Virus record (IMG/VR): IMGVR_UViG_3300046323_000234
Strand: one strand, 5' to 3'
DNA length: 64,000 nt
Origin: a virus
Shown: positions 2-50,580 of the stretch, one piece after another
Position numbering within the stretch: position 1 is the first letter of the stretch
Layout of the letters: each line of letters begins with the position of its first letter
Notes under the pieces: generated by a model
Seen by the model: only the letters and a program-made list of their open reading frames with translations
Database searches by the model: none
What the model was told of the DNA's origin: nothing
Program-made: the position numbers and the translations under genes

Positions 2-2368
2 TTTTAATTGATTGCAGGTTGGGCAAGTTTGTGATTCATTAAGTGAAGTAATTTCTTCTCTTAATCTTTTACCATCTCTTTTGATTAATTCAATTTCACC
101 AAGAAGTGCAAATTTCTTATTGGTTAATGTATCAATTTCAAGCTTAATATTGTTTATTTGTACTTTATGGTCATAAACAAATTGTTTATGTTCATCCTTT
201 TGCTTTTCACAATTATTAAATTCTTCAACATTATATTCAGATGGTAATGTTGATATTTTATCATTTAATTTTGTTAGTTCTTCATTTTTCAATTTAATAC
301 CATCATTATGTCTTGATATTTTTTGATTAATGTCATTAACATTTGTATTTAAAACTTCTGGATCAATATTATGTAGCTTAGATGATAAATTCGTTTTATA
401 CTCATTACCAGTTTTAATTCTACTTTCAACGTCAACAATATTAATTGATTGAATAGTATTTATATCATCTTTAAATTTAATAATATCAACATTTTTTTGA
501 TTGATATCATTTTCAGATAATTCGACATTTAAAACAATTTTCTCTTTGGTTTTGAAATAATCCTTTTTATATTTCTTGAACTCTTCAAGTTTCAAATCAC
601 AAAGATCAAATCCAGCATCGGACATTACTGAATCGATAAATTCGCTTTTATTTACCGATAATAATGTATTTAGATTATCACCAGTGGTTATAGCAATTCT
701 AACAAAGTCATCATAACTACCAATAATCTCATCTATTTTCTTTTGTGTTTTTCTTCTAATATCTTCTGTTAGATTGGTATTCTCTTCTGATAAAATATTA
801 TTATCATTTAATTCATCGTCTGGTGAATTAAGTTTATAATATTTAACAGTTGTTGGTGTTGAAGATATCTCGGTTCTTGTCTTATTCCATTTTCTTGTTG
901 TTTCTCTTTTTACACCAAAGAATTCGCCATTGGCTGTAAATATTACAGTTCCATTACAGAAATCAACTTCAAGTTTATTATTAATATATCTATCATCACC
1001 ATTTTTTTGAACTTTAGATGTTTCAATTGTTTTGCCAAACAAAACATACATTATTGATTTAATGGTGGCAGTTGTCTTACCATTTCTATTCTTACCGAGA
1101 ACTTGAATAATACCCCTCAAATCTCTAAAGTCAATAGCTAAATCTTCAAATGAAAATAAGTTCTTTGTCTCCAATCTAATAACATCCCATATTATATTGG
1201 TATGATTACTAATATCCAATCTACCAGTAATGGTATTATCTAATTTAATTACATCATTTATAATATCTTCTTGATAACCCTTTTCGGTTAAGAATTCTGA
1301 AATTATTCTATTTTGTGTATCCTTCTCATTTATTGTGGCCAGATTAATTGTATCTTCAGCAACAATAATCTTTTCATCAACAAGAAATTTATTTTCATGT
1401 CTTATTGATAATATTCCTTGATATTTTAATTTTAGATATTTTGTAACATTATCAATATTCTCTGGTGTCTTGAACGCTGGAAATGTGTTCCAAACAATAC
1501 TGACTTTCATAAATTCAGTTGGATATTCAATATCTATTTCAACATCTTGAAAATCAAAAAATCTATTAATGCTTATTTTTTGGAATGAATACCTATTTTG
1601 GATTGGTCGCTGTTCCATTGTGATATTTTCTTTGTTGGAAATATCCCACATCAAATATCCATGAAAAGCTTTTTCACCATTTCTATCAACTTCGGCAAAA
1701 TCTTGCATTATTAGTGATGAACTATATGCACCAAATAATTTATTATTTAAGTCCAGATTTTGCATCAAATGTAAATCCCCTGCCATTACTAAGTCAGAAT
1801 TTTTAAATTCATTAATCGAAATATATGATGGTGAATCCATATTAAATCCAGTTGCAGAAACTGAACCTCTAATTGGGTTATGGTATAAATCAATATAGGT
1901 TTTTGTTTCATCCTTTACATGTGGAACATCTTTCCAGGGATTAATTTTATCACCATGATGCCAAACAACCCATACAACATTTTCATCCTCAAAAAATCCA
2001 GTTTTATTTAAATAAACAACATTTGGATTATTGATTAATTCAACAACTGTTTGAATTGAATCTATTCTATTTAGATTCTTCTTTTGAATATCGTGATTTC
2101 CTCTGGTTATAATAACTTTTGTTACCTTTGATAATTTATTAACTAGATCGGAAAATTGATTTAATACTCTACCAGCTTGCAATAAACCCTCATTTGATGG
2201 TTCAATATAGTTATGGAAGATATCTCCAACAATAACAATTCTATCTGGTTTTGTTATTAGAACATCATTATATAAGTTTTCAAAAACTTCATTATATTCT
2301 TCGTATCTGGACAATCCAACACGAATATGCCAATCGGCAGTATGTGCTATTTTTAAAATTTTATTCAT
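2..2368 (-). CDS. Fused SbcD/Mre11 nuclease + SbcC/Rad50 ATPase (T4 gp47-gp46-like), truncated by the window edge
   Basis: Absent from the ORF track; hand translation from ATG at 2368 gives MNKILKIAHTADWHIR (metallophosphoesterase motif I), GDIFH, RGNHD, GDLH, then in the same frame a Walker A LGKNRNGKTT at ~1070-1100 and coiled-coil sequence; no stop across the 1141-1560 junction. Confidence 0.9.
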   Translation of the reverse strand, partial: MNKILKIAHTADWHIRVGLSRYEEYNEVFENLYNDVLITKPDRIVIVGDIFHNYIEPSNEGLLQAGRVLNQFSDLVNKLSKVTKVIITRGNHDIQKKNLNRIDSIQTVVELINNPNVVYLNKTGFFEDENVVWVVWHHGDKINPWKDVPHVKDETKTYIDLYHNPIRGSVSATGFNMDSPSYISINEFKNSDLVMAGDLHLMQNLDLNNKLFGAYSSSLIMQDFAEVDRNGEKAFHGYLMWDISNKENITMEQRPIQNRYSFQKISINRFFDFQDVEIDIEYPTEFMKVSIVWNTFPAFKTPENIDNVTKYLKLKYQGILSIRHENKFLVDEKIIVAEDTINLATINEKDTQNRIISEFLTEKGYQEDIINDVIKLDNTITGRLDISNHTNIIWDVIRLETKNLFSFEDLAIDFRDLRGIIQVLGKNRNGKTTATIKSIMYVLFGKTIETSKVQKNGDDRYINNKLEVDFCNGTVIFTANGEFFGVKRETTRKWNKTRTEISSTPTTVKYYKLNSPDDELNDNNILSEENTNLTEDIRRKTQKKIDEIIGSYDDFVRIAITTGDNLNTLLSVNKSEFIDSVMSDAGFDLCDLKLEEFKKYKKDYFKTKEKIVLNVELSENDINQKNVDIIKFKDDINTIQSINIVDVESRIKTGNEYKTNLSSKLHNIDPEVLNTNVNDINQKISRHNDGIKLKNEELTKLNDKISTLPSEYNVEEFNNCEKQKDEHKQFVYDHKVQINNIKLEIDTLTNKKFALLGEIELIKRDGKRLREEITSLNESQTCPTCNQLK

Positions 2369-2666
2369 TTATTTTTAAATTATGTTTTTTTATTAAAAAA
2401 TTGTAATAATGATCAGTATTAAATGGTGTACCGAATATAATTAAATCTAGATCAATAAATGAAAAAATACTTCCATTTATGGTTTTACCAACTATTTTAT
2501 TTTCAATAATAATCTTATATTGGCCTCGATTTATTTCTTCGAATATTATTTTATCCCAAACATCTAAAAAGTTTTTTTCACATTGTTTAGAATAAAATAA
2601 TTCATCATCAATTAACTGAGAATGAATATGATTATTATATATATCAATTAAATATTTACAAAGCAT
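2361..2666 (-). CDS. CxY-module family small protein
   Basis: N-terminus MLCKYLIDIYNNHIHSQLIDDELFYS. Confidence 0.8.
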   Translation of the reverse strand: MLCKYLIDIYNNHIHSQLIDDELFYSKQCEKNFLDVWDKIIFEEINRGQYKIIIENKIVGKTINGSIFSFIDLDLIIFGTPFNTDHYYNFLIKKHNLKINE

Positions 2667-3060
2667 TTTCTAAAAATTTCTTTTCCATATATGCATTATT
2701 TGTAGCATAAGTACATAAATATATTTTTTTAAATAATATATTTTCCCCAATATATTTTATTATTGATATTATAGTATAATATTCTATATAATATTTATCA
2801 CGAAATGGGAGATATATTTCAAAGACATCAAATGTAAATCCAATCATTTCATTTTCTTCAAGATAAACCTCGAACAATATTTTATCATCTCTAAAATAAT
2901 AATTGGAGTTATTATATTTTGGTAACTGTTTAATATCCGTAACACTTCCCCATACGTCCAAAAAGGTTTCCCATACTTCTGCTGAATAAATTAGTTCATC
3001 ATCCAATAAATGTGGATGAATATGTTCTAAATATATGTTGTTTAAATAATTACAAAACAT
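2656..3060 (-). CDS. CxY-module family small protein
   Basis: MFCNYLNNIYLEHIHPHLLDDELIYS, then FLDVW and ILFE blocks. Confidence 0.8.
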   Translation of the reverse strand: MFCNYLNNIYLEHIHPHLLDDELIYSAEVWETFLDVWGSVTDIKQLPKYNNSNYYFRDDKILFEVYLEENEMIGFTFDVFEIYLPFRDKYYIEYYTIISIIKYIGENILFKKIYLCTYATNNAYMEKKFLENAL

Positions 3061-3451
3061 TATTTATATATCTATCATATAGTTCAATATCTAATTTATG
3101 TTTTTTAATTAAGTCAATAACTAAATCTGTACTATCTATATTTCCTCCATTTAATAATAAATAATCAAAATCGGTATAAACATGATCGACAACAATAGCA
3201 TGATTAATTAAGTAAAGGCCAATCATTAATGTTTCACCATTTCTATAGTAACATTCGAATATATCAGCATTCCTATTATGGTGTATATGATATGATCTAA
3301 CTGAAGAATATTTGGGAACAAATGTTATGGTTAATTTTTTCCATAAATCCAAAAATTTCATCTCAACCAATGGTGAATAAAATAATTCATCTCCTATTAG
3401 ATTTGGCTCAATATGATTTCTATATAGTAATATTAATTCATCACACAACAT
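3050..3451 (-). CDS. CxY-module family small protein
   Basis: MLCDELILLYRNHIEPNLIGDELFYS, FLDLW. Confidence 0.8.
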   Translation of the reverse strand: MLCDELILLYRNHIEPNLIGDELFYSPLVEMKFLDLWKKLTITFVPKYSSVRSYHIHHNRNADIFECYYRNGETLMIGLYLINHAIVVDHVYTDFDYLLLNGGNIDSTDLVIDLIKKHKLDIELYDRYINNVL

Positions 3452-3804
3452 TATTTTTTTAATTTAATTTCTAGATTATATTTTTTTATTAATTCATTAT
3501 AAAAATTATCGGTTTGAAATGTCTTTTTAAATATAATCCTATCTAATTCGGATGATGATATAATAATACTATGGTAATCAACCCAAGCCAATATACAAGC
3601 ACCATATCTGATTATATATTCAAAATCATCTAAATGTTCAACATATTCATATTTTTCAATATATGCGTTATTCCACAAATCTAAAAAATCATTTTCAATC
3701 TGCACAGAAAAAAATAATTCATCAAGTATTAGATTTGGGTGTAGGTGATTTTTATAAATATCGATTAAATAATCGCATAAAATATTATTTCCTAATCTCG
3801 TCAT
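3451..3804 (-). CDS. CxY-module family small protein
   Basis: ILCDYLIDIYKNHLHPNLILDELFFS, FLDLW; C-terminus resembles 2361..2666 (TDxxYNxLIKKxNLxI). Confidence 0.8.
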   Translation of the reverse strand: MTRLGNNILCDYLIDIYKNHLHPNLILDELFFSVQIENDFLDLWNNAYIEKYEYVEHLDDFEYIIRYGACILAWVDYHSIIISSSELDRIIFKKTFQTDNFYNELIKKYNLEIKLKK

Positions 3805-4324
3805 TAATTTCTTTAAATCTTGATTTGAGTGAGCTTACTGGTCTATTTGATATTTTGGTTAATTCATCATATCTATAACCGTCAATATATTTTAGTTTAA
3901 ATAAATCAATATCATCTTGTTTAAATGTATTTTTTAGATTTTCCAATATATCTCTTTTTATAAAATCGGTATCACTATCATTGGATGAATCTATGCTATC
4001 AAATGTTTCATCCATCGCAACAGTAATTAATTGTCTTTTTTTATTAATATATCTTCTATGGTCAATTAATGTATTTCGGGCAATAGTTCCAATCCAATTA
4101 TTGAATTTTGCTTTAGATTTATCGAAGTTATTTATACTATCGAAAGCTTTACATAAAACATCGACTGTTAAATCACAAGAAACTTCAAAATCAACTTTTT
4201 GTTTATAATAATATGATTTAATTTTTTTATTATATCTTTTATATAGAATTGTATATGCACTATTATCTTTGGATATAATTTTATCAACCAATTGTTCATC
4301 CGTACAAATTACCTTTTTTGGCAT
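3785..4324 (-). CDS. ECF-type sigma-70 factor
   Basis: Region 2 motif FDKSKAKFNNWIGTIARNTLID and region 4 HTH (LFKLKYIDGYRYDELTKI...SSLKSR); 179 aa. Confidence 0.85.
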   Translation of the reverse strand: MPKKVICTDEQLVDKIISKDNSAYTILYKRYNKKIKSYYYKQKVDFEVSCDLTVDVLCKAFDSINNFDKSKAKFNNWIGTIARNTLIDHRRYINKKRQLITVAMDETFDSIDSSNDSDTDFIKRDILENLKNTFKQDDIDLFKLKYIDGYRYDELTKISNRPVSSLKSRFKEINDEIRK

Positions 4325-10237: not shown

Positions 10238-10642
10238 TTAAACCACGTAATCTTTATTAAAATAATTTTCAATATCTGTTTGAATATCAATAGTTATTAA
10301 AGCCACATAATCATATATTCCATTTTTATATATTATTCGTCTTAAACAAGATATTATTTTTCTTGTACTCATTAAATATTTTTTAGACATGACATCAATA
10401 ACCATATGACTAATTAAAAAATCTTGACCAACATATTGTAATTTATCAACTATAAAATATAATTTATTATCAATAAAATATAAATCATAGTCACGATCTG
10501 GATGTTTTTTTATAATTATATCTACATGATTCCACAAATCTAAAAAATGATTCTCAATTGGATAATAATATTCAAATTCATCATCTATTAGATTAGCTTT
10601 AATATGATTTTCATAAATATCATTTAAATATTTACAGAGCAT
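10238..10642 (-). CDS. CxY-module family small protein
   Basis: MLCKYLNDIYENHIKANLIDDEF, HFLDLW. Confidence 0.8.
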   Translation of the reverse strand: MLCKYLNDIYENHIKANLIDDEFEYYYPIENHFLDLWNHVDIIIKKHPDRDYDLYFIDNKLYFIVDKLQYVGQDFLISHMVIDVMSKKYLMSTRKIISCLRRIIYKNGIYDYVALITIDIQTDIENYFNKDYVV

Positions 10643-11027
10643 GACTATATGGTTTTTTTATTAAATGTTTATAGTCGTTATATTTATTACAATTATAATC
10701 ATACGATTCTGTTAGAGTAATTCGACAATTATTAAATACCACACCAAAAAAATCACCAATGATGTATTTATAACCTGGTGAATCATATTTAAAATATTTA
10801 GAACTCGGCCAACAATAATAATGATTAATATGATTTATTTCGAGAAATATTTCATCATCAATATAATATGTTGTAATCTCTCTTTCGACTGATGTAATTA
10901 CAAAATTAACTTGTTTCCATAAGGATTTAAAATGTTCAATATCTGGTTGATAATATCTAAATTCATCCTCTATTAGATTTGCTTTAATATGATTTTCATA
11001 GATATCATTTAAATATTCACAGAGCAT
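10632..11027 (-). CDS. CxY-module family small protein
   Basis: MLCEYLNDIYENHIKANLIEDEF. Confidence 0.8.
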   Translation of the reverse strand: MLCEYLNDIYENHIKANLIEDEFRYYQPDIEHFKSLWKQVNFVITSVEREITTYYIDDEIFLEINHINHYYCWPSSKYFKYDSPGYKYIIGDFFGVVFNNCRITLTESYDYNCNKYNDYKHLIKKPYSHAL

Positions 11028-12225
11028 AGTATTTATTTCTTTGTGCTATTAACCAAACGTTTAAATAAACACCATCAGGTAATTCACTTAAATCAGAAAT
11101 TTTATAATGATTATCAAGTTCTGATCTTAATTTCATTGCAGTTTCCAATAAAATATCATATTGGATCTTACCAAACTTAATATCCATTAGATAATCTTTA
11201 TCTGTTGTTCTAATCATTTTAATACCTTCACCATTGGCTATTTCTTTGGCAACAGTTAACAATCTCACACAATGTGACATATCCTTTTGGTCATATCCAA
11301 TAACTTCCGCTTTTGAATACCTAACTGGATTTCTTTTCTCCACAAATTCCCAATATTCTTTATAATCTTTACAATATTGGATATATCCATCTTTGTTGTA
11401 GTAAATATAGCCGAGAAATACAATATCATTTACATCATATTCATCTTCATGTGGAATGGATGATAATCTAATTTCATTGGATTGTGACAAATCATTATCA
11501 AGCACAATACCCTTAAAACCATATCCCATATTGAGATTATTATCTTTTCTATGTTGCTTAGTTATTTTCCGTTCCAATTCATCATAATCTTTATTAAAGA
11601 TTGAATCCGATACCTTATCGTAAAATAATCCATAAACATCTTTGGCATGTGGTGTATTAACCACTCCACAATATAATTGTTTTTTATATTTTCTTTTTAA
11701 ATAATGTTTTAATAGAATGCTTTTGGCATTATCGGATAAGAAATAACAAAAATCCAATATATCTTTCTTCTCCTTATCCACTGGATTCATTATCTTCTTA
11801 TTCTTGGCTTTCGCTTTTTGCATTTGTGATACAGCATACTCGCCAAACGAATATAAACACTTTTTTGATAAAATATTATTAATATCTACATCAATAAATT
11901 TTTCATTTAAATATGTGTATTTTTTGTTAATAACCGACTGCAATATTTCCAAAGCATTTGCATCGTTTTTCTGTAATAATTTAACAAATTTACTTATCTC
12001 ATGGTAAGTAACATCTGGTGCTTTTGATTCAGCAGTTAAATTATAATTCTGATTATCTATTTGATTGGATAATACATCATCCAATTCCATAAAGAAAACA
12101 CCTGCAAAATCCACATCGCTTGTTTCAGTATTCAATCCAAAAGCATGTGAACCAACTACTGTTTCAAACAATAATAAATTATTGTTTTTGATGTATTCTG
12201 TTGTATATTTTTCTTTTAATTTCAT
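11017..12225 (-). CDS. DNA polymerase beta-superfamily nucleotidyltransferase (YcgL-like)
   Basis: VGSHAFGLNTETSDVDFAGVF (GS...DxD), YDQKDMSHCVRLL. Confidence 0.85.
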   Translation of the reverse strand: MKLKEKYTTEYIKNNNLLLFETVVGSHAFGLNTETSDVDFAGVFFMELDDVLSNQIDNQNYNLTAESKAPDVTYHEISKFVKLLQKNDANALEILQSVINKKYTYLNEKFIDVDINNILSKKCLYSFGEYAVSQMQKAKAKNKKIMNPVDKEKKDILDFCYFLSDNAKSILLKHYLKRKYKKQLYCGVVNTPHAKDVYGLFYDKVSDSIFNKDYDELERKITKQHRKDNNLNMGYGFKGIVLDNDLSQSNEIRLSSIPHEDEYDVNDIVFLGYIYYNKDGYIQYCKDYKEYWEFVEKRNPVRYSKAEVIGYDQKDMSHCVRLLTVAKEIANGEGIKMIRTTDKDYLMDIKFGKIQYDILLETAMKLRSELDNHYKISDLSELPDGVYLNVWLIAQRNKYYAL

Positions 12226-12446
12226 TCTGTTAATTCAGTAAAACGTATATTATAACCATAATTTCTAGTAAAATCAATAATACAACTCCTGTATTTAATA
12301 AATCCAAAGGAAATGCCGTAAATTTGGTAATCTAGATTTATATGAGTAAAATATGCTTTAATTATTTCTTCTTTAAAATCATCACCAGTTATATGATTTT
12401 CAACAATATTCTTATGTATCTCTAATATGTACTTACATGGCTTCAT
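12222..12446 (-). CDS. CxY-module family small protein
   Basis: MKPCKYILEIHKNIVENHITGDDF; probable start 12446. Confidence 0.7.
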   Translation of the reverse strand: MKPCKYILEIHKNIVENHITGDDFKEEIIKAYFTHINLDYQIYGISFGFIKYRSCIIDFTRNYGYNIRFTELTE

Positions 12447-12646
12447 TTTACCAATCTTAAAATTTGAGCACCCCAAGTTCTTTCGTATTTTATATTAGAT
12501 TCTTTACATATGTATGTAAAGACTTCAGTATCATCATTATAAGAATCATAACAATAATCAACAAAAAAATGACGAAATTCATCAGTTGTTAAATAATTTA
12601 TAACAATATTTGAATGGATCTCTAATATGTATTTGCAGGGTTTCAT
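12443..12646 (-). CDS. CxY-module family small protein
   Basis: MKPCKYILEIHSNIVINYLTTDEF. Confidence 0.75.
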   Translation of the reverse strand: MKPCKYILEIHSNIVINYLTTDEFRHFFVDYCYDSYNDDTEVFTYICKESNIKYERTWGAQILRLVK

Positions 12647-12861
12647 TCTACTAATTTTATAATATTATCACCCCATTTTTTTCCGTATCTTATATTGGAT
12701 AATCCACATACATATGTATAAGTTTTAGTACTATTTCTATCGAGATACCTATATAAATCATCATAACGAGAATATGCAAAAAAATAACGAAATTCTTCAA
12801 GTGTTAAATAATTTATAACAATATTTGAATGTATTTCTAATATGTACTTACAAGGTTTCAT
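12643..12861 (-). CDS. CxY-module family small protein
   Basis: MKPCKYILEIHSNIVINYLTLEEF; first 20 aa identical to its neighbour. Confidence 0.75.
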   Translation of the reverse strand: MKPCKYILEIHSNIVINYLTLEEFRYFFAYSRYDDLYRYLDRNSTKTYTYVCGLSNIRYGKKWGDNIIKLVE

Positions 12862-13043
12862 TCTACTAATTTAAATAATGTACTTTTAAAATTTCTCACA
12901 TATTTAATATTTGATAATTTACAAGAATAAACAAAATTCTGACCAGAAATATAATCCAATCCTATAAATGATGTTTTTTCTTCTAACGTTAAATTATTTA
13001 TAATAATTGAATGAATTTTTAGTATATACTTGCAGGGCAACAT
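12858..13043 (-). CDS. CxY-module family small protein
   Basis: MLPCKYILKIHSIIINNLTLEE; shares YxCxxSNIxY with its neighbours; probable start 13043. Confidence 0.7.
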   Translation of the reverse strand: MLPCKYILKIHSIIINNLTLEEKTSFIGLDYISGQNFVYSCKLSNIKYVRNFKSTLFKLVE

Positions 13044-13047
13044 ATTA

Positions 13048-13737
13048 TTAATATTTAATAAATTTAGGTACAAATCCACCTTGAGTACAACCGACAACTG
13101 GCATTAAAACATCGCCTTTAACATCACAATTGGATATTGATGATATTTCTTTATGCCATGTTTTAAAGTTTTTGTTATCAACTTTTGATATATTAATCAA
13201 AACATGAAAACCACCTCTGGTTTGCAATAAAGATACAGCATCTTTATTAATTTTACCATCAAGTTGCGAAATTAATTCATCATATCCAATATTGTCAAAA
13301 TCAAAATCAATAAAATATTTTTTACCATTACTGGTTTGAATCATTGACAATACTTCTTGGTGTGGATTAAAGTTTCTATGTTCATCATTATCGCAAATAA
13401 CTTCTGCAAACTTCTTTAATGAATTCTTTGTGGCTTTAAGTAAGTCTCTAGGGTTTGGCATAATATATAATGCCAATGATTCAACTGGAACTGGCTGGCC
13501 ATTATATTTATAGCAACCAACTTCACATTCCAATTGTTTGATTTTATCAATCAAAAGTTCTTTTGTTGATGTAAATCTTTTTAATTGTTGCTTATCCGCT
13601 TTTAATACACCACTTTCATTGGCATATTTTGATCTTGCGAATAAACAAACATAAAAGGTTTCGTTTTTGGATAGGTTGGGCAACCAATCTAAAAACTGTT
13701 TCAATGCCTCAATATCCTTAATTATTTCGTAATTCAT
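13048..13737 (-). CDS. Hypothetical protein with AEP (primase-polymerase)-like motifs
   Basis: FIDFDFD (DxD) and QTRGGFHVL (motif II-like). Confidence 0.5.
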   Translation of the reverse strand: MNYEIIKDIEALKQFLDWLPNLSKNETFYVCLFARSKYANESGVLKADKQQLKRFTSTKELLIDKIKQLECEVGCYKYNGQPVPVESLALYIMPNPRDLLKATKNSLKKFAEVICDNDEHRNFNPHQEVLSMIQTSNGKKYFIDFDFDNIGYDELISQLDGKINKDAVSLLQTRGGFHVLINISKVDNKNFKTWHKEISSISNCDVKGDVLMPVVGCTQGGFVPKFIKY

Positions 13738-13934
13738 TTTCTAATATATTTTTTAATATATAATAATAATTCTCTTTCATTTTCTATTAAAATTGAAAAT
13801 CTATTCCAAAGAATTATATCAAAATTTGGATTGGTTGTTTCATCATCATAAAACAATCCGTTAATTTCATCACGTGCAAAATTCTCAACAATTAATTCTA
13901 GGATTTCATTAACATATTTACAATTATTTTCCAT
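13734..13934 (-). CDS. CxY-module family small protein
   Basis: MENNCKYVNEILELIVENFARDEI. Confidence 0.7.
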   Translation of the reverse strand: MENNCKYVNEILELIVENFARDEINGLFYDDETTNPNFDIILWNRFSILIENERELLLYIKKYIRK

Positions 13935-14112
13935 AAAATAATCGCCTTATTTTATTACTTAGCTCAGTACCATATAATTTTTTATATTGTTTACCGAAGA
14001 TTCTATGCAAATCATCATTATTTATTAAACCCATGAAATGTGTTAATTCATCAGAGGTTAATCCCTTTGATATGCGTTTTAATATTTTATTCACTTCGAT
14101 GCAATTATTCAT
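13924..14112 (-). CDS. CxY-module family small protein
   Basis: MNNCIEVNKILKRISKGLTSDEL. Confidence 0.65.
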   Translation of the reverse strand: MNNCIEVNKILKRISKGLTSDELTHFMGLINNDDLHRIFGKQYKKLYGTELSNKIRRLFYGK

Positions 14113-14321
14113 TATTTATTTAATATAGATTGAATTATTAATGGATATTTGGCTTTAACTAAAAGCTTTTCATTATTAAATTTATTTTCAATTAAATAAT
14201 TTATTTCAGTTAATAGCATAGATTCAAAAATAATGGATTGGATTTGGTCAATGTATTTACAATTTTCTATTTTCATCGTTCTATCTCTATTAACGTAACA
14301 TCCATTAAAAAAGTTTTCCAT
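14112..14321 (-). CDS. CxY-module family small protein
   Basis: MKIENCKYIDQIQSIIFESMLLTEI (start may be 14276). Confidence 0.65.
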   Translation of the reverse strand: MENFFNGCYVNRDRTMKIENCKYIDQIQSIIFESMLLTEINYLIENKFNNEKLLVKAKYPLIIQSILNK

Positions 14322-14918: not shown

Positions 14919-14927
14919 ACTATTTAT
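14919..14927 (+). promoter_or_regulatory. Putative late promoter ACTATTTAT
   Basis: Motif recurs shortly upstream of many structural genes. Confidence 0.7.
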
Positions 14928-14945: not shown

Positions 14946-15791
14946 GTGGCATATCCAAAAAGAAATAAGATTAATATTAACGTAAATGAACAAAAGATTG
15001 GTATTAATAGAATAACCCAACTCTTGAACAATACTGACGTTAAAACCGTTTATTTACCCCATAAGATTGGATTAAAGGACTTACATAGAGGTTTTTTTAA
15101 TTTCGTCAATGAGGGTGAGTTGAAGATCAATGTTTCTGGATATGATGAAAATCAACAAAAGAATGTGCCAACCATATATCTATCAAATGAAAAATGGGGT
15201 GAGTTTTCAAAAACATGGCAGTATGTTGATAAGGATAAAAACTTATTAACACCATTCATTACTGTCAGAAGAACATCAAAAGCAAAAGGCACACATAGTG
15301 GTGAAAGATATTTAGTTCCACAAAGAAAAGCATTTAAATATTATGATGTTCCAACATTGGATAATGGTGAAATTATTGTAACCAGATATAAGATTCCACA
15401 GCCAACCACTATTGATTTAATGTTTGATGTTAAATTATTTACAAAATATCAATCCGATTTGGATACGTTTGATGAAACCTACTTTAAAGCATTTGCATCT
15501 GGTCAAGCCTATTGCAATGTTAATGGACATCTATTACCAATAATGTTGGATGCTACTGATGAACCATCATCAATCGAAGATGCCAATGGACAAAGAATGT
15601 ATGTATCTTCCTATTCACTTAAATTAATGGGATATATCTTGGATGATAAAGATTTTGTTATTACCAAAACATATAGAAAAGTATTGACAGAGATACAATT
15701 TTTGGATAGATTTGAAAACTTTCTTAAACAATACCATACAGTTGAGGGTTCTACAACATTTGATTATCTGTTTGATTTTAATTTGTCATAA
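14946..15791 (+). CDS. Putative tail completion/terminator-like virion protein
   Basis: VPTIYLSNEKW, LLTPFITVRR, IPQPTTIDLMFDV, LKLMGYI resemble T4 gp15-type proteins; late motif upstream. Confidence 0.55.
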   Translation: MAYPKRNKININVNEQKIGINRITQLLNNTDVKTVYLPHKIGLKDLHRGFFNFVNEGELKINVSGYDENQQKNVPTIYLSNEKWGEFSKTWQYVDKDKNLLTPFITVRRTSKAKGTHSGERYLVPQRKAFKYYDVPTLDNGEIIVTRYKIPQPTTIDLMFDVKLFTKYQSDLDTFDETYFKAFASGQAYCNVNGHLLPIMLDATDEPSSIEDANGQRMYVSSYSLKLMGYILDDKDFVITKTYRKVLTEIQFLDRFENFLKQYHTVEGSTTFDYLFDFNLS

Positions 15792-19112: not shown

Positions 19113-19261
19113 AATTTGAGGGTGTTCTCCACAATTAATTGAGGTGGTATCAAAAATAAAGGGGTGTTATTGACCCTAATTTGAGCGTATTTTTCATCTT
19201 TAATACTTTCCAATTTAAATCACGTGGTGTTGTTGACCCTAATTTGAGCGTATTCTCCACC
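19113..19261. repeat. CRISPR-like mini-array: two full 36-nt repeats and one partial, unique 27 and 29 nt spacers
   Basis: GGTGTTGTTGACCCTAATTTGAGCGTATTCTCCACC (19226-19261), GGTGTTATTGACCCTAATTTGAGCGTATTTTTCATC (19163-19198), partial AATTTGAGGGTGTTCTCCAC (19113-19132); periods 63 and 65. Confidence 0.6.
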
Positions 19262-19575
19262 ACGTTCTTTATAAGCTGTTGAATATCATCATATTTCATA
19301 TAATATTTAGATTCGAAAACAGACCAAACCTTAGCATAATTGCAGTATATAAATTGTTTTTTTAAATCCTGTTTAATATACAATTCAAATAATATATCTT
19401 CATTTATACAATAAAAAGTACTATCTGGATGTTCTAGATATGTTTTGGCGTTATTACAGGAGAACCACAAATCCAAAAAGATTTCTTCTACTTCTTGTGA
19501 ATAAACATATTCATCATTAGATAATGACTTATATATATGATTGAGATAAATATCGTTTAAATAGTTGCAGAGCAT
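19150..19575 (-). CDS. CxY-module family protein whose C-terminus is encoded by the repeat array
   Basis: MLCNYLNDIYLNHIYKSLSNDEY, FLDLW, ILFEL, KVWSVFESKY; ends ENTLKLGSTTP...KNTLKLGSITP. Confidence 0.8.
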   Translation of the reverse strand: MLCNYLNDIYLNHIYKSLSNDEYVYSQEVEEIFLDLWFSCNNAKTYLEHPDSTFYCINEDILFELYIKQDLKKQFIYCNYAKVWSVFESKYYMKYDDIQQLIKNVVENTLKLGSTTPRDLNWKVLKMKNTLKLGSITPLYF

Positions 19576-19883
19576 AGTTTTGGTTATTTTTATCAACAAA
19601 GATAATATTTTATTTTGATTTCCTATTTATTAGTAAGATATTTACAATCTAAACAAATAAAACTATGGATATTGAATTGGGTTAATTAAATCTGATGTTT
19701 TATATCATCATTGTCAGCTTAAAACTGACTATTCAACTATAAAACATAATTATTTTAATGTTAAATATAATTTATTTTATTCACTATGAAATTCTTTAAA
19801 CTGTTTTCACAAAAAGCAAAACCTTTTTGGATTGATTTGCGTTTATATGATTGAAAGTATTAAACAATTTAAATTTTAAAACA

Positions 19884-20351
19884 ATGAAAAAGATTAATTT
19901 GATGATTTTATCGGTATTTGTAATGATGTTTATTGCATCATGTGATGGTAAAGAAGATGTTAAACCAGTAGATGAATTTGCTGAAATCAAAGCAAAATTG
20001 ACTGGTAGGTGGGTTATGGAATATGTCCAGACCAATGATGGTAAAACTTGGAGTAGAGAACAAATGTGTGATGGTGGAAACACGCCAGAACAGTATATTC
20101 CTTGGATAAATGAATTTTCATTTGAGTTTGTTAATAACGAGTATTTTTCACAACCTTGTGAATTAGGGAGTAAACAAAGAGATATTTCGTATATTGATAA
20201 TGATATATATACAATTAAATATGGTGTTAATGTATTTTATACACTAACAATTATCTCAAATGATGATAATCAAATCCAATTAGAATTAACTAAGAGTGAT
20301 CATGGTATAAATCCATATAAGACAAAATTTTATTTAAATAAGGTAGATTAA
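19884..20351 (+). CDS. Lipoprotein, Bacteroidota lipocalin-like
   Basis: Signal peptide MKKINLMILSVFVMMFIAS-C (lipobox), acidic residues after Cys, LTGRW (GxW) motif. Confidence 0.75.
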   Translation: MKKINLMILSVFVMMFIASCDGKEDVKPVDEFAEIKAKLTGRWVMEYVQTNDGKTWSREQMCDGGNTPEQYIPWINEFSFEFVNNEYFSQPCELGSKQRDISYIDNDIYTIKYGVNVFYTLTIISNDDNQIQLELTKSDHGINPYKTKFYLNKVD

Positions 20352-28180: not shown

Positions 28181-28393
28181 TTATAAAAAGATTTGAGGTG
28201 GATTTTTATCTATATTATCAATCCTACCTTCAATTATTAGATTGATTTTTATATTCGATATAACTGAAAAACATTGATTATTTACTGTTTTATCCGAAAA
28301 TCTAGCAACCTCAATTATTGTTAAACTACTTAATATTTGATTATAAGCATCTATTAAATAATGTGAATGTGGAAAGTAGACTATTTTAAACAT
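28181..28393 (-). CDS. Divergent CxY-module family protein
   Basis: HSHYLIDAYNQILSSLTIIEV (Ser in place of Cys). Confidence 0.5.
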   Translation of the reverse strand: MFKIVYFPHSHYLIDAYNQILSSLTIIEVARFSDKTVNNQCFSVISNIKINLIIEGRIDNIDKNPPQIFL

Positions 28394-28806: not shown

Positions 28807-28928
28807 TCTCTCACAATGCAGTATAATATTATATGTGATAATTTTGGCTCAGATAAAATCTCCGATATTGGAATATGTTCAACAATAATATCAATTATTT
28901 CTCTTATATATTTACAATTATTAATCAT
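28803..28928 (-). CDS. CxY-module micro-protein (41 aa)
   Basis: Hand translation MINNCKYIREIIDIIVEHIPISEILSEPKLSHIILYCIVRE. Confidence 0.7.
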   Translation of the reverse strand: MINNCKYIREIIDIIVEHIPISEILSEPKLSHIILYCIVRE

Positions 28929-29367
28929 CAGTTAATTCAAATAAGGTTATTCCATCTTCAAGTTCTTCTACCATTTTAACTGGAAATATATTACGCTCAT
29001 TATAATGAGTTTTATTATTTTCATTATATTCAACATAGGAATTTCTATCAATACAATATGTTAATATATTGGATAATTTTATACTAACATCATTACTATT
29101 AGATGTTTGATAATAACCATTTTTATAAAATAATGTTTCACCAATTTCAAATCTAGCTATTGATTTTAACATCATATTTATAATATTATTAACATAATAA
29201 CAATTATGTTCAAAATTATTAATATTAATTGATAACTCACGTTCTGGATTAAATTTTGGTGGTGGATTACTAGCACTAATTATCATTTGTTTAATTATTA
29301 ATATATAACTACAATAACCAATCCAATCATTTTCATCCAATTCTTGATTTCTATTGTTTAGATTCAT
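28921..29367 (-). CDS. CxY-module protein with two module copies
   Basis: YCSYILIIKQMI and NCYYVNNIINMMLKSIARFEI. Confidence 0.65.
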   Translation of the reverse strand: MNLNNRNQELDENDWIGYCSYILIIKQMIISASNPPPKFNPERELSININNFEHNCYYVNNIINMMLKSIARFEIGETLFYKNGYYQTSNSNDVSIKLSNILTYCIDRNSYVEYNENNKTHYNERNIFPVKMVEELEDGITLFELTDD

Positions 29368-33055: not shown

Positions 33056-33454
33056 TTATTGCGCCACTGCATATCCAATAGTTATAATAGTTGATGCGCC
33101 AACAGTTGTAACAGGCCCTGCTGGTGATGCGCCAGCAGATACAACAGTAATCCCAGGGGGTAACGCAACTGTTATAATCATATCGGATTGGATTGCTTTT
33201 ATAATTTCTTCTATTCTAATTCTTTCCATTAATTCATCTGGACTAACTTCACCAGATGGTAAATCACCAACTGATAATCCAGCTTCAGCTTTTCTTCTTA
33301 TAACACTTGATGCTATTTTTTGTGCAGATAATCCTGGTCTTGAGGGAACACCAAACAAAATTAATGAAGGTGGAACTGGTGGAGTTACACCACCTTGAAT
33401 TTTAAATAACTTTAAAAAACCTGATGTTATATCTTTTATCGAAGTAAATGCCAT
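33056..33454 (-). CDS. Hypothetical virion protein
   Basis: RPGLSAQKIA, LPPGITVVSAGASPAGPV; near the spike gene. Confidence 0.6.
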   Translation of the reverse strand: MAFTSIKDITSGFLKLFKIQGGVTPPVPPSLILFGVPSRPGLSAQKIASSVIRRKAEAGLSVGDLPSGEVSPDELMERIRIEEIIKAIQSDMIITVALPPGITVVSAGASPAGPVTTVGASTIITIGYAVAQ

Positions 33455-33456: not shown

Positions 33457-33723
33457 TTATTGTTTCTTATAAATAGAATCTGGTGGAAAATTAACTCTGG
33501 CAAATATATTATTATCAAATGAGTTAATTGAATGAATATTAAATATATCACTGTCAGGATATAATATTGATATCTCGCTGTACATCATATTATCCATAAA
33601 TATTTTTGTTAAAATTTTTGATACTTCCGAACAACATACCACACCACCATATTTAAATCTAATATTGTTTGGATTTGCATATTTTAAATTATAAAAATAA
33701 TTGGTTCTAAATCTCCTACCCAT
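33457..33723 (-). CDS. CxY-module family protein (internal, divergent module)
   Basis: CCSEVSKILTKIFMDNMMYSEI. Confidence 0.5.
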   Translation of the reverse strand: MGRRFRTNYFYNLKYANPNNIRFKYGGVVCCSEVSKILTKIFMDNMMYSEISILYPDSDIFNIHSINSFDNNIFARVNFPPDSIYKKQ

Positions 33724-35018: not shown

Positions 35019-35396
35019 TTAGTCCAATCCTTTTAATTTACTATCTTTTATTGTTTGTTTTAGTTCTTCAGCAAATGAATACAAATCCGTGTTTTCACCA
35101 TCTGAATCTTTTTTCTCGGCTTTGCCAATCAATTTAATGTCGTTATATATAATATCTTTCATTATTTTAACAACCTCAACCTTTTTACCTAAAATCTTTT
35201 CTCTTTTATCAATCAAATCTATAATCTGTTTACCAATCATTGCAATATCACCAATTTCACTCGCCTTTGGTTTCCATTTATTTAACAATAAAATAGTATC
35301 AGTACGAATGTTGTGAGTTTCGTTATAACATTCTTGCAAAATCTCCAACATGGATTCTTTTGTAAAATCTAATTTTTTCTTTGTTATGCGTGACAT
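35019..35396 (-). CDS. Hypothetical helical protein
   Basis: ACTATTTAT upstream on the minus strand (35414-35422). Confidence 0.6.
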   Translation of the reverse strand: MSRITKKKLDFTKESMLEILQECYNETHNIRTDTILLLNKWKPKASEIGDIAMIGKQIIDLIDKREKILGKKVEVVKIMKDIIYNDIKLIGKAEKKDSDGENTDLYSFAEELKQTIKDSKLKGLD

Positions 35397-35441
35397 AGCT
35401 ATTTAGTTTATATATAAATAGTTATGATTTTAATATTTGCA

Positions 35442-35657
35442 TTATATTCGAATTTGTCTAAAAATATTTTTTATTCTTAAATTATAAAATAATCTAACGA
35501 GATATCCATCATCATACTTACTAATGTAACTAATTTTATTTATTTCATCATGCAATAAATGATTTTGAAACAAATCCAATAATATCTCTTCAACATATTT
35601 GCAGAAAACAATTTTTGGATTTGTTTCTATTTTGTAATTATTCTTCATCCCTTTCAA
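35442..35657 (-). CDS. CxY-module family small protein
   Basis: FCKYVEEILLDLFQNHLLHDEI. Confidence 0.7.
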   Translation of the reverse strand: MKGMKNNYKIETNPKIVFCKYVEEILLDLFQNHLLHDEINKISYISKYDDGYLVRLFYNLRIKNIFRQIRI

Positions 35658-36333
35658 AAATAAAATTTGTTTTTGTTAAATCAACATCATTTGGTATTAT
35701 ATCCTTTAATTCTTTGTATTTATTTTTTATGTTGGACATTGTTTTTATTCTATGTGCTTCTTCAATTTGCCACATTATTGTTTCAAAGGTTGAGCCAAAT
35801 ACACAAATTAATTCATTCGATAATAAATTTTTATTAATTATAACAAGAATATCTTCAACATATTTACAAGCTAAATGATGATTATTATAACATTTATTAA
35901 CATCATATTCTAATTCTATTTTATTAGATGGTGTATTTAATTTATAAGAATGTGTGATATAATAGTGGTGATTTTTTACAATATTAATACTACTATTATT
36001 ATGATAATTAGGTCGAATTTTTGATAATAACTTTCTTCTATTATAATCCAACCACATATTTTTCCAATCCAATGAATCATGTAACATATTGAATTCATCA
36101 TGTAATAAATCTTTTTTTATTAAAAACATAATATCTTCAATATATAAACATGTTGAATTATATTGGATTGGTAATTTTTCATATCTCCACGTTTCTTTAC
36201 TACTTAGATTTAGAAGAAATTCATTTCTCTTAGCAGCATATGCTATATTATGATAATCATATTCTTCTGGTAATAAATGAATGTTTATATGATTTACAAT
36301 ATCTTCAATATATTTACAAACTAAATTATTCAT
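35638..36333 (-). CDS. CxY-module protein with three module copies
   Basis: VCKYIEDIVNHINIHLLPEEY, TCLYIEDIMFLIKKDLLHDEF, ACKYVEDILVIINKNLLSNEL. Confidence 0.8.
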   Translation of the reverse strand: MNNLVCKYIEDIVNHINIHLLPEEYDYHNIAYAAKRNEFLLNLSSKETWRYEKLPIQYNSTCLYIEDIMFLIKKDLLHDEFNMLHDSLDWKNMWLDYNRRKLLSKIRPNYHNNSSINIVKNHHYYITHSYKLNTPSNKIELEYDVNKCYNNHHLACKYVEDILVIINKNLLSNELICVFGSTFETIMWQIEEAHRIKTMSNIKNKYKELKDIIPNDVDLTKTNFIFERDEE

Positions 36334-40083: not shown

Positions 40084-40911
40084 TTAAAAACTATTTTCGA
40101 TTGGTTGTAAGCCGTAAATACATTCACCCTGTGCCACATAAGATCTACCCGATCCAAACATAATCCTAGCATCCAATCCATTATATTTTATTTCTTCTGA
40201 TTGTCCATTGAATAATATTAAATCACCAATCAAATCTCCGTTTGTCACGATATCCCCAAGTTTTTTATTGCTTGGAATAAATATTCCTTCACTACTGCTA
40301 TTAAATTCAATATAGTGTGAGTATATTGGATTTAAAGATTCAATTGTTAATGTGCTAACATTTGATATTAATTTTAATATAATTCTTGCACCATTTTTTG
40401 CAGAGTTTATATCAACAATATCAAGTTTATTTAATTCAATGGTAAATCCAATCTTATCATTGTCCAAGCAATATTTTTTTATTGTATCATTACTACTATT
40501 TCTAATAACATAATAAATATCACTACTTCTACAAAAATTAACATATGAATTACAAAATTTATCTCTATTGATTAATACAAAATCAGTACACAATGGTGAT
40601 GAATGTATATCTATAACAACATCTGAATTATCGATATTTTCTTTTAATGTTTCAAAAATGTCAACATTATCGGATTTAAACATTCTATTCAAATCATTTT
40701 GGATTGGCATCTCTCTGGTATTATCTCTAATACCTTGTTCATTTACAAAGTTTATAACAGTTAATTCACTATAATTTGGTGAATCTTGTGTTAAATATCT
40801 TTCCAATATAGATGCTGACATCACTGGTGTTAATTCATTTCCATGAACACCAGCAATTACTAATATTCTTTTAGTACCAGTTCCGTTGTATTTATTTAGT
40901 TGCATAATCAA
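40084..40911 (-). CDS. Succinylglutamate desuccinylase/aspartoacylase (M14) family protein
   Basis: AGVHGNE, DLNRMF, VIDIHS, FTIEL, biotinyl-like C-terminal barrel. Confidence 0.85.
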   Translation of the reverse strand: MIMQLNKYNGTGTKRILVIAGVHGNELTPVMSASILERYLTQDSPNYSELTVINFVNEQGIRDNTREMPIQNDLNRMFKSDNVDIFETLKENIDNSDVVIDIHSSPLCTDFVLINRDKFCNSYVNFCRSSDIYYVIRNSSNDTIKKYCLDNDKIGFTIELNKLDIVDINSAKNGARIILKLISNVSTLTIESLNPIYSHYIEFNSSSEGIFIPSNKKLGDIVTNGDLIGDLILFNGQSEEIKYNGLDARIMFGSGRSYVAQGECIYGLQPIENSF

Positions 40912-41665
40912 TCACTTCGTCAATTAATTCAAGTTCTTTTGCTTCATCAGCACTTAAATAATAATCACCTTCTTTCAACTTATTTTCCCACCATACTTTA
41001 GATTTATTTGATTTTGAAACCAATAAATCTAAAACACAATTGTTTAATTTCTTCAAATGTTCATAATTGATGGCCATATCTTTAAATGCTCCAAAAAATC
41101 CTCCATTGGTTTGGTGAATCATCATCCATGAGTTCTTGGACATTTTTCTATAATCACATGCAATCAAAATAAACGCACCACCAGACATTATCTGTCCACG
41201 ACCTGTACCATGTATTGGATATGGTTTTTCATTCAACAGATCAACAATTCCAAGTGTTGTATAAGCATCACCACCATAAGATGTTACAACAATATTTAAT
41301 GGTGATATTTTATCTTCTTCATATTCTGGAGATAACTTTTCAATTATTCTTATTTTTGTATCCATTTCTGATAGCGATAAATCATCAATATCAGATGATA
41401 AGTGAATCGTTTTATCACCAACATCAATTCTATGTTCCAATAATTCTTTTAATGCTACACTATATTGATTCCAAAATTCATTAGATTCCATTTCAGATGG
41501 CATCATTTCATCACCTTTTTGATCTTCTGGTGTATATGACATTTGTATTTCAATTGATGTACCTAGATGTTTCTCTAAATCATCTTTTAATTTATTATAT
41601 TTTTTGAAAAATGATTTATCATTCTTCATTTTATCTTGCAATTCCAAATATTTTACCTTATCCAT
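40892..41665 (-). CDS. clpP: ClpP-family protease with N-terminal extension
   Basis: TSYGGD, catalytic Ser IMSGGAFIL, MIHQ, DYYLSADEAKELELIDEV. Confidence 0.88.
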   Translation of the reverse strand: MDKVKYLELQDKMKNDKSFFKKYNKLKDDLEKHLGTSIEIQMSYTPEDQKGDEMMPSEMESNEFWNQYSVALKELLEHRIDVGDKTIHLSSDIDDLSLSEMDTKIRIIEKLSPEYEEDKISPLNIVVTSYGGDAYTTLGIVDLLNEKPYPIHGTGRGQIMSGGAFILIACDYRKMSKNSWMMIHQTNGGFFGAFKDMAINYEHLKKLNNCVLDLLVSKSNKSKVWWENKLKEGDYYLSADEAKELELIDEVIDYATK

Positions 41666-42506: not shown

Positions 42507-42631
42507 AAGGGGGTTAAGTATAAAAAATATTCATTTATTTTTAATTTAATTTAAAATGTTCTATTTAAATTAAATAAATGGCATATCATAATATGTTTTA
42601 ATCACTATTTATGTATAATAATAGTTGAATT

Positions 42632-49553: not shown

Positions 49554-49949
49554 ATGAACAATGTTGATCCATACTCAATTGCTACAAATGGCCTATTAAC
49601 ATCAAATACAAATAATTATTTTGTTACTGATGGTTTAGGTTATTATACTATTCAAATTTCGGAAGAAATTATTGAAATTGATGTACCTACAGTAAGAAAT
49701 GGTAATTGGGTTGGTAGATTACCTAAGAGGGGTAGAAAGCAATCTGAAAAAATCTTAGTTAAAGAAATTACTGTTACAATTAATTTAGATTCACATAAAG
49801 AATATTTTAAATCTAAAATTCAATTAACTGATGTTAATCTCACAGTAACCAATGCAATAATTAATGGTGATGAAATTACATTAACTATTCATAATCCAAC
49901 CTTAAATATTGATGAAACTAGAATAGTAAAACTGAATGTTGTTTTATAA
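49554..49949 (+). CDS. Hypothetical late protein
   Basis: Last ORF of the structural operon. Confidence 0.55.
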   Translation: MNNVDPYSIATNGLLTSNTNNYFVTDGLGYYTIQISEEIIEIDVPTVRNGNWVGRLPKRGRKQSEKILVKEITVTINLDSHKEYFKSKIQLTDVNLTVTNAIINGDEITLTIHNPTLNIDETRIVKLNVVL

Positions 49950-50126
49950 AAAAACTCTGTAACTACTATATTTATATAGTTCCTTTTCAAAAACATAAAT
50001 CTCAAATCCAATAATTGTATTTGTATTATTATTTTCAAATCTAACTAAATCGTAAATAGTATTTGGTTCGATATGATTTTTAATTATATCAAAAACATAA
50101 ATGGAACATTGGATTTGTTGTTGCAT
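49944..50126 (-). CDS. Divergent CxY-module small protein
   Basis: QCSIYVFDIIKNHIEPNTIYDL. Confidence 0.55.
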   Translation of the reverse strand: MQQQIQCSIYVFDIIKNHIEPNTIYDLVRFENNNTNTIIGFEIYVFEKELYKYSSYRVFL

Positions 50127-50130
50127 TATT

Positions 50131-50580
50131 TTAATAATGATAATATTTATGATTTGGTAAATAATTTTTTATTACCATAATAATTCTACTTCTATCAACA
50201 TCATTACCCACATCACCACCATAACTAGTAAAATAATATGGTAAATATCTTGCAATATATAAACCAATATGATTATATTGAATTGTACTATTTATATAAA
50301 TAATTTCATAATCAATAAAAAATATTTTAATATCATTAATATAATATTCAAAATTATAATCTTCATCTATAATATTAAATTTTCCCAACTGTGCTATTTT
50401 ATTTAAAATAATTTTAAATGATTCACAATATAATGATATTCCATCACTATTTTCTATTCTATATATTTCATTATATTCATCCAAAATAAATGAATTATTT
50501 ATTATTTTTTGATAAATATCAGCAATATGATAACACATTTTAAAATCATTTATAATGTGGTTTTCTTTGTTCCAATCCAT
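50131..50580 (-). CDS. CxY-module family protein
   Basis: MCYHIADIYQKIINNSFILDEY; YYINDIKIFFID resembles the second block of long members. Confidence 0.65.
   Translation of the reverse strand: MDWNKENHIINDFKMCYHIADIYQKIINNSFILDEYNEIYRIENSDGISLYCESFKIILNKIAQLGKFNIIDEDYNFEYYINDIKIFFIDYEIIYINSTIQYNHIGLYIARYLPYYFTSYGGDVGNDVDRSRIIMVIKNYLPNHKYYHY

Follow-up and report, generated by a model that had tools for sequence, protein, structure and literature searches.

A family of small phage proteins built on a common CxY helical module in an uncultured freshwater T4-like phage

The Bro-N/bro genes and the multigene families (MGF) of African swine fever virus (ASFV) are lineage-specific tandem expansions whose members combine a constant N-terminal part with variable remainders, and in the MIX, LXG and MuF-fused toxins a constant N-terminal marker is followed by exchangeable C-terminal payloads. 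A comparable layout was found in the 64,000-nucleotide stretch of virus DNA analysed here (the window; IMG/VR virus record IMGVR_UViG_3300046323_000234), in which small minus-strand open reading frames (ORFs) share a module of about 25-27 residues, here called the CxY module, joined to divergent bodies. In phage T4 the internal proteins IPI, IPII and IPIII carry a 10-residue capsid targeting sequence (CTS), a constant N-terminal leader on divergent bodies, and T4-related phages contain varied proteins with CTS-like leaders (PMC9026906).

The likeness of the CxY family to the Bro-N/bro and ASFV MGF genes is one of design only; no sequence or fold similarity was detected, and the module is far shorter than Bro-N. 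With the MIX, LXG and MuF systems it has in common a separable constant handle, whereas here the bodies, of 15-120 amino acids (aa), contain no recognisable toxin or enzyme domain and no secretion or packaging apparatus is linked to them. The T4 internal proteins resemble it in their constant N-terminal leader, divergent small bodies, contractile-tailed phage and variable loci; they exist in three copies, in contrast to about 27 module genes, which lie in operons that appear not to be late and whose module is integrated into the fold in predicted models.

An earlier note on this DNA, made from the letters of the sequence, had described about 30 dispersed small genes of 41-231 aa with a common CxY module, all on the minus strand, and the family, these sizes and this orientation were borne out. 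A loose regular expression for the module matched 24 times on the minus strand and once on the plus strand. When a first hidden Markov model (HMM) built from 24 such seeds was run on all 1040 six-frame stop-to-stop segments of the window, the seeds scored 26-47 bits and the best unrelated segment 8.5 bits, and four copies that were not seeds were picked up (Table 1). The second model (HMM2), built from 46 sequences with foreign homologues included, gave 29 domain matches of at least 18.5 bits in 27 ORFs, all on the minus strand between 2361 and 50580, the next real match being at 9.1 bits; two of the matched ORFs, 28399-28611 and 50131-50580, lay outside its training set. Reversed sequences reached at most 9.1 bits and five residue shuffles 6.6-13.8 bits; off-frame controls were covered by the six-frame scan, and all controls remained at or below 13.8 bits.

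Since most of these scores are circular, the model was rebuilt with one genomic cluster omitted at a time. Eight of ten clusters were recovered by such naive models at 15-43 bits, noise reaching 10.3 bits at most, namely those at 2.4-3.8, 10.2-11.0, 13.7-14.3, 15.8-17.1, 19.2, 20.4, 28.4-28.8 and 35.4-36.3 kb. The cluster list of the earlier note is thereby upheld for the most part: the 12.2-13.1 kb cluster was marginal (13.1 and 11.0 bits), 33457-33723 was not recovered, and 49944-50126 and 28181-28393 received no support as members from any model. Leave-out scores were also weak or failing for 28921-29367 and 28803-28928. The module regions were independently ranked by a DNA repeat finder as the main dispersed repeats of the window. 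A fair count gives about 20 firm members, about six plausible and three or four doubtful ones, and the DNA immediately to the left of the window encodes at least one further member (P0034), which follows a 1127-aa Metallophos protein.

The CxY module family is real and matches no described family. Ten diverse members compared with Pfam-A, PHROGs v4, NCBIfam 20 and PADLOC 2 gave nothing at E ≤ 0.01, and the foreign homologues gave no match in curated libraries except GatB_Yqey of P0026. PDB sequence profiles yielded chance matches only (ParM, bacterioferritin, mS45). A helix-turn-helix (HTH) of the Xre/HTH_3 kind, considered for the L-[ST]-x-x-E-L turn, found no Pfam HTH match, and its PDB profile matches were at chance level. 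The module may also resemble the N-terminal helices of T4 AsiA; no AsiA match was obtained in Pfam or PDB searches.

The distribution of the family is narrow. A profile of 11 window paralogues of the dialect with the HIH motif (profile A1), searched against 1.84 billion representative proteins, returned only 42 matches, of which about 10 were the window's own, about 20 were foreign proteins with module and body, and about 12 contained the body only. The same profile found no match in bacterial and archaeal genomes (185,579 species genomes) and, in collection scans, one viral locus and none among metagenome contigs; a word-index protein search returned the window's own proteins only. Relatives occur only in a few AT-rich contigs (25-28% G+C), at 1-4 copies per approximately 15 kb and all in the HIH dialect, and those of checkable origin derive from the freshwater samples that also yielded the window. 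Dialects other than HIH were found only in this phage. Among GenBank phages no megablast match to the window DNA was obtained, and tblastn with two members was empty. The window sequence is present at 100% identity in contigs from several freshwater metagenomes (19 freshwater DNA metagenomes), the longest contig bearing these proteins being 171,483 bp, and its source is an uncultured freshwater T4-like phage.

A further array was noticed in another freshwater phage (contig L005, 172.8 kb), in which ten tandem genes of 57-92 aa at 11923-14303 share the motif YPHSILLK.IL.DL..L....EL..D.DE. This motif repeats the design of the CxY family, with Ser in the place of Cys, and aligns with it in the same register, but at E 0.056 only; the array profile found nothing in the viral contigs scan.

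In 28 anchored window copies Cys3 is the sole invariant residue of the module, Ile9 and Glu22 being nearly so. The conserved positions 3, 6, 9/10, 13/14 and 18 form one hydrophobic stripe and the polar positions are variable; in helix 1 the stripe is made of C3, L6, I9/Y10, I14 and L18, after which a turn leads to the L-x-x-D-E-[LFI] element that opens helix 2. As the earlier note had it, the module is usually N-terminal, most copies starting within 2-5 residues of the initiator Met; it begins at residues 19-156 in six ORFs, stands at the C-terminal end of 28399-28611 and is present threefold in 35638-36333, where direct repeat family D5 spans all three copies. Ser takes the place of Cys in several foreign homologues (P0021, P0022, P0024, P0026 and P0033).

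The invariant Cys, together with the His-x-His of the main dialect, could be thought to form a metal-binding, redox or nucleophilic centre, the module then being a cofactor or sensor site. Cys amounts to 2.1% of the family compared with 0.9% in other ORFs, a second Cys follows an aromatic residue in many bodies (Y-C, W-C-D-Y), and the foreign exchanges of Cys for Ser are typical of nucleophile positions; the same exchanges are, however, poor for metal binding, about half of the dialects lack the His residues, the Cys belongs to the hydrophobic stripe of helix 1 and no known metal-binding motif was matched, so that we consider a chemical role of this kind very unlikely.

The conservation of the module acts on the protein. 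At identical residues the same codon is used with a frequency of 0.545 between clusters and 0.665 within clusters, and codon usage alone predicts about 0.65; synonymous codons are therefore no more alike than expected, and an RNA- or DNA-level motif as the source of the conservation was rejected by these synonymous-site statistics. An exception is the pair 10238-10642 and 10632-11027, whose modules are 92% identical in DNA with a third-position identity of 0.88, as opposed to 26% protein identity and a third-position identity of 0.54 in the bodies. By this pattern, 10559-10642 and 10944-11027 form a gene-conversion tract of about 84 nucleotides (nt) limited to the module.

The family grew mainly by local tandem duplication, since the closest relative of 15 of 24 copies lies in the copy's own cluster (expected 2.4; maximum 10 in 2000 permutations). 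Neighbouring module genes frequently overlap in their start and stop codons, and in several arrays TGT-AAx, formed by Cys3 and the next codon, provides the TAA stop of the upstream gene. The module dialects differ from cluster to cluster, which would suggest concerted evolution and, taken with the module-limited tract (84 nt at 90% between genes with bodies 26% identical), could mean that the constant segment is a recombination handle for shuffling bodies or homogenising copies, with no specific protein function. What is kept across the family is nevertheless the amino-acid pattern and not the synonymous sites, and the nucleotide identity between clusters, only 60-80%, is too low for efficient homologous exchange; a handle of this sort has hardly any likelihood in our judgement.

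The bodies were compared by blastp with the module masked. Seven of them (2361, 3451, 2656, 19150, 20368, 10238 and 10632) are interrelated and form group A. A second body, group B, is shared by three or four (12443, 12643 and 12858 in this comparison), and for about 14 no relative among the other bodies was detected, so that their description in the earlier note as mostly unrelated was overstated. The body-only matches of profile A1 (P0030, P0032 and P0035-P0042) are proteins of about 100-150 aa with unrelated N-termini and no CxY hairpin, which align over profile positions 29-118 at E 6e-5 to 1e-3 and have the hallmarks of body A, FLDLW.., ..WCDY..VW.vFe.. and ..IQ.FIK..VE.H. They contain the same body domain as the seven group A genes and are likewise uncharacterised, belonging to no Pfam or PHROG family. 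Three viral clusters of the ESM Atlas fit residues 15-133 of the group A model with template modelling (TM) scores of 0.63-0.64 by query and 0.75-0.77 by target, and in BFVD a run of "uncultured Caudovirales phage" proteins with neighbouring accessions resembles this model (best E 3e-4), the body A domain being multi-copy in at least one other uncultured phage. Because other phages carry body A with no module attached, this body is a phage domain in its own right, so far undescribed, from which the module can be separated.

P0026 (L005 10001-11425, 474 aa), composed of a Ser-variant module, body A and a C-terminal GatB_Yqey domain (PF02637, 1.4e-22), is the sole case in which the family is joined to a known domain; longer fused forms were sought, and no example came to light. 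The C-terminus of the 19150 protein, which is 56% identical to P0003 of another phage, repeats the peptide VE.TLKLGS.TP (window 19154-19259, minus strand; DNA repeat D17, 86% identity), and VE.H.K....TP occurs two or three times in the module-less P0039 and P0042. To judge from the peptides, the repeat seems to belong to the protein, at the C-terminus of the body-A family, and not to a CRISPR-like array.

AlphaFold models were obtained for one protein of each group. The group A protein of 19150 (37-sequence alignment) was predicted with a predicted local distance difference test (pLDDT) of 86 and a predicted TM score (pTM) of 0.73, with helices at residues 2-17, 20-25 and 27-38, four strands and two helices; the group B protein of 12443-12646 (66-67 aa) gave pLDDT 85 and pTM 0.66, with helices at 4-17 and 20-27 and 3-4 strands. 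In both body types the module is modelled as two helices that form a helical layer ahead of the small beta-sheet of a compact alpha+beta domain. The earlier proposal of a constant tag with a variable payload is supported in one respect, the module being evolutionarily separable (body A without it, shifting positions, a conversion tract limited to it), and not in the other, the picture of a free tag being unsupported because the models integrate the module into the fold.

An autonomous docking tag, by which the hairpin would join all paralogues to one common hub and the bodies would be payloads or substrate selectors, is nonetheless a serious if rather doubtful alternative. Candidate hubs would be a host machine or a protein of the phage, for instance the ClpP-family protease at 40892-41665. 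The same approximately 25 residues are joined to bodies between which no similarity was detected, take an internal or C-terminal place or occur threefold in some ORFs, and make up nearly the whole of the 41-46 aa members, and the conservation of the hydrophobic face alone is as expected for a helix buried in a partner; the absence of the module from some body A proteins and the conversion tract confined to it point the same way. The models, in contrast, build the module into compact domains, a conserved polar surface is not seen, and cluster-specific dialects are unlike the prediction of one invariant docking site. The broadest form of this idea, in which the CxY hairpin, perhaps together with the Ser-type YPHS hairpin, would be a universal plug linking 30-45 small specificity domains to one hub, is improbable; if true, it would represent a phage-encoded combinatorial adaptor library redirecting one host or phage activity to many targets. 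A homodimer prediction for the 36-residue module scored 0.03, with an uncertain partner fold and no controls, and carries no weight either way.

The fold and profile checks on module and bodies proposed in the earlier note brought out no described structure or family. Foldseek against the PDB gave a best E of 0.08, with GNAT rows at TM ≤ 0.28, and a wide fold comparison peaked at Z 4.1 with model A (MCM N-terminal and winged-helix rows) and at Z 4.8 with model B, none above background; winged-helix rows were weak (Z 3.0-3.3) and stood amid many unrelated folds. The group B model has, like OsmE (4dm5), two N-terminal helices on a three-stranded sheet and was aligned with it over the full length of the model at Z 4.4 (root-mean-square deviation 3.1, 66 residues), a Z at which the background is dense. 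OsmE/BamE and small immunity or anti-CRISPR proteins (4dm5, 7txx, 9uu1 and 5yhr) show no sequence similarity to the family and their Z of 3.8-4.8 is within the chance range; all of these are periplasmic or otherwise unrelated to it in role. A feature search of the ESM Atlas brought up giant-virus hypothetical proteins at 0.90, which were set aside as an effect of AT-rich composition.

The window has a G+C content of 23-34% and encodes a contractile tail, with a sheath at 22929-25601 (about 30% identity to cyanophage gp18), a tube at 27654-28142 and baseplate hub-like genes. It also contains genes of replication and nucleotide metabolism (primase-like, ThyX, MazG-like, two AAA proteins, RlaP, exonuclease and PhoH) and of a sigma70_r2-like protein. 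Most module copies are found in operons with the primase, ThyX, MazG-like, AAA, RlaP, exonuclease and sigma70_r2-like genes, within minus-strand units that open with replication-type genes or at the far ends of such units, and often abut convergent plus-strand genes. A box of the CTATTTAT type is found 6-43 nt ahead of the start codon in the sheath, tube and baseplate-hub genes, in further plus-strand genes and in two on the minus strand. With 15 in the window and 10 expected, the boxes do not exceed chance in number, and it is their placement that stands out; the box is a candidate late promoter, which the sigma70_r2-like factor at 3785-4324 would recognise. A relaxed form of the late box lies at most 70 nt upstream of 10 of 25 plus-strand ORFs, of five of 29 other minus-strand ORFs, among them 20774-22813, 33056-33454 and 35019-35396, and of one of 24 module ORFs. 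Two members are downstream of probable late boxes, 20368-20769 and 33457-33723, the latter inside a probable late transcription unit. The rarity of late boxes and the units led by replication-type genes suggest that expression of the module genes may not be late. In a sigma-70 promoter scan the sequence had fewer sites than its shuffles, a result of no informative value in AT-rich DNA.

These data bear on the analogy with T4 drawn in the earlier note, according to which the module would be a prohead-targeting leader cut after the conserved Glu and the family a set of head-packaged, ejected proteins. It is true that the phage has a contractile tail with a distant gp18-like sheath, that the T4 internal proteins likewise pair a constant leader with divergent bodies (PMC9026906), that most modules begin 2-5 residues from the initiator Met and contain a nearly invariant Glu, and that the ClpP-family protein at 40892-41665 matches the "head maturation protease" family of PHROGs. 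The analogy fails, however, on length (10 residues in T4, about 25 and two predicted helices here, with the Glu inside the start of helix 2), on position (some modules being internal, C-terminal or triplicated), on the L/I-x-E sequence at the conserved Glu (four of 24 copies only), on late context (a late box upstream of one of 24, most being in replication-type operons) and on basic character, which the module proteins do not have (median isoelectric point 5.7, compared with 5.9 for other ORFs); moreover, the conservation extends beyond the Glu (x-Y-S, then FLDLW in group A). No gp21-type protease (Peptidase_S77) was detected in the window, outside which two thirds of the genome lie, the ClpP-family protease being the only one. 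A T4-style leader cleaved after Glu is accordingly disfavoured, and we hold head packaging of the family to be highly improbable.

The module proteins contain no hydrophobic segments and are probably not virion proteins. With a confidence that stays somewhat below even, we favour the view that they are diversified small non-virion binders on a constant helical scaffold. They would constitute a lineage-specific family of small soluble phage proteins, enlarged by tandem duplication, in which the hairpin, retained by selection on the protein, may be the constant scaffold half of a small binding domain and the fast-diverging, sometimes swapped C-terminal halves may provide each paralogue with a different target. 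Such a set of binders or inhibitors might serve host takeover or counter-defence and would be expressed from non-late units shared with replication and nucleotide-metabolism genes. Several observations weigh against the diversified-binder view: the pLDDT of the module (76-87) is below that of the body (89-96), the 41-46 aa members have too little body to cover the hairpin, a pure scaffold role leaves the invariant Cys, replaced by Ser in several foreign homologues, unexplained, and the fold searches gave no convincing match (best Z 4.1-4.8, best Foldseek PDB E 0.08).

Between 2.3 and 50.6 kb, this one undescribed family accounts for about a quarter of the ORFs, and paralogue expansions so large are unusual in tailed phages. 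It is at present an orphan family, solidly supported by its sequences and their evolution. The combination of a constant helical half with diverging or swapped remainders suggests a phage that diversifies small binders against its host; if targets were found, it is tempting to speculate that the family would be a source of many new small inhibitors of bacterial processes or defences and, likewise, a natural example of scaffold-based binder diversification. The features of the window are collected in Table 1.

Table 1. Members and candidate members of the CxY module family, and CTATTTAT boxes, in the window. Leave-out values are bits from an HMM built without the ORF's own cluster; non-seed values are bits in the first HMM.
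Feature	Position	Strand	Module	HMM2 (bits)	Leave-out (bits)	Remarks
Module ORF, 101 aa	2361..2666	-	residue 3 (MLCKYL..HIH..DDEL)	55.0	26.8	body group A, like 3451-3804
Module ORF, 134 aa	2656..3060	-	residue 3	59.6	30.4	body group A, like 19150-19599
Module ORF, 133 aa	3050..3451	-	residue 3, C-D-E-L variant	51.6	only 10.7	
Module ORF, 117 aa	3451..3804	-	residue 10	51.6	22.9	overlaps stop of sigma70_r2-like gene 3785-4324
Module ORF, 134 aa	10238..10642	-		57.6		body group A; module recently homogenised with that of 10632-11027
Module ORF, 131 aa	10632..11027	-		47.7	27.0	body group A
Module ORF, 84 aa as listed	12222..12476	-	MKPCKYILEIH dialect	29.6	13.1 (marginal)	inner Met likely start
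Module ORF, 66-67 aa	12443..12646	-		32.5	7.8 (noise level)	body group B; modelled with AlphaFold; leave-out being at noise level, membership rests on paralogues
Module ORF, 72 aa	12643..12861	-		33.4		body group B, like 12443 and 12858
Module ORF, 79 aa as listed	12858..13097	-	MLPCKYIL		11.0	body group B; inner Met likely start; non-seed 28.2
Module ORF, 66 aa	13734..13934	-	NNCKYV dialect	36.8	30.1	body unique
Module ORF, 62 aa	13924..14112	-		34.7	17.0	body unique
Module ORF, 69 aa as listed	14112..14321	-	residue 21	24.7	11.4	inner Met likely start
Module ORF, 101 aa	15764..16069	-	MICDEL..HIH dialect	43.9	16.3	3' end overlaps convergent plus-strand gene 14946-15791
Module ORF, 99 aa	16053..16352	-		47.9	19.8	
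Module ORF, 102 aa	16349..16657	-		49.7	27.4	
Module ORF, 137 aa	16654..17067	-	residue 11	24.6	13.1	first gene of the 17067-to-15764 array
Module ORF, likely start 19575 (141 aa)	19150..19599	-			42.6	body group A; alone between plus-strand genes; non-seed 31.6
Module ORF, 133 aa	20368..20769	-			24.6	body group A; downstream of 20774-22813; non-seed 20.2
ORF, 70 aa	28399..28611	-	C-terminal end (residue 45)	18.6 (untrained)	21.3	
Minimal module ORF, 46 aa	28666..28806	-		30.9	11.2	
Minimal module ORF, 41 aa	28803..28928	-		22.7	8.1 (weak)	
ORF, 148 aa, weak member	28921..29367	-	internal (residue 56)	25.5	fails	
ORF, 88 aa, doubtful member	33457..33723	-	internal C-S-E-V variant (residue 31)	25.4, in training set	<5	
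Module ORF, 71 aa	35442..35657	-	residue 19	24.8	16.2	
ORF, 231 aa, three module copies	35638..36333	-	residues 6, 62, 156	33.1, 32.8, 32.6	15.1 (best copy)	N-terminus non-seed 11.8
ORF, 149 aa, divergent module	50131..50580	-	residue 16 (MCYHIADIY..)	18.5		never in training set
ORF, 60 aa, unsupported as member	49944..50126	-				nothing above noise in both HMM scans; 10.9 bits in small-database run
ORF, 70 aa, not CxY module	28181..28393	-		no match		FPHSHYLIDAY.. start like the Ser-type YPHS array of L005, with which it aligns; late box 21 nt upstream
CTATTTAT boxes	14920-14927, 22893-22900, 27604-27611, 30192-30199, 42605-42612, 51844-51851, 52921-52928, 56234-56241	+				
CTATTTAT boxes	33469-33476, 35414-35421	-				

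Some other genes of the window were noted. The ClpP-family protease at 40892-41665 (minus strand; PF00574, phrog_94 "head maturation protease") is located between PhoH and an AstE/AspA-like deacylase and not among head genes. A TnpB/OrfB_IS605 gene (PF01385, Cas12f1-like TNB) at 30205-31572 on the plus strand has a CTATTTAT box 6 nt before its ATG; a TnpB also occurs near the module gene of another phage contig (L002 5768-6898), the two TnpBs not being similar at E < 1e-8. The 619-aa protein of 25679-27538 (plus strand), whose gene stands between those of sheath and tube, is rich in Cys at its N-terminus and matches DUF7487 (5.5e-14). A glycan-synthesis cluster at 59428-64000 (plus strand), which runs on into L011, comprises GT2, a GDP-mannose-dehydratase-like epimerase, GT11 and GT10 fucosyltransferase-like genes, a DegT aminotransferase and a HAD/nucleotidyl-transferase. 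A 13-bp perfect hairpin at 20335-20364, with T/A runs on both sides, lies where the genes 19851-20351 (plus strand) and 20368-20769 (minus strand) converge and is likely to be a bidirectional terminator.

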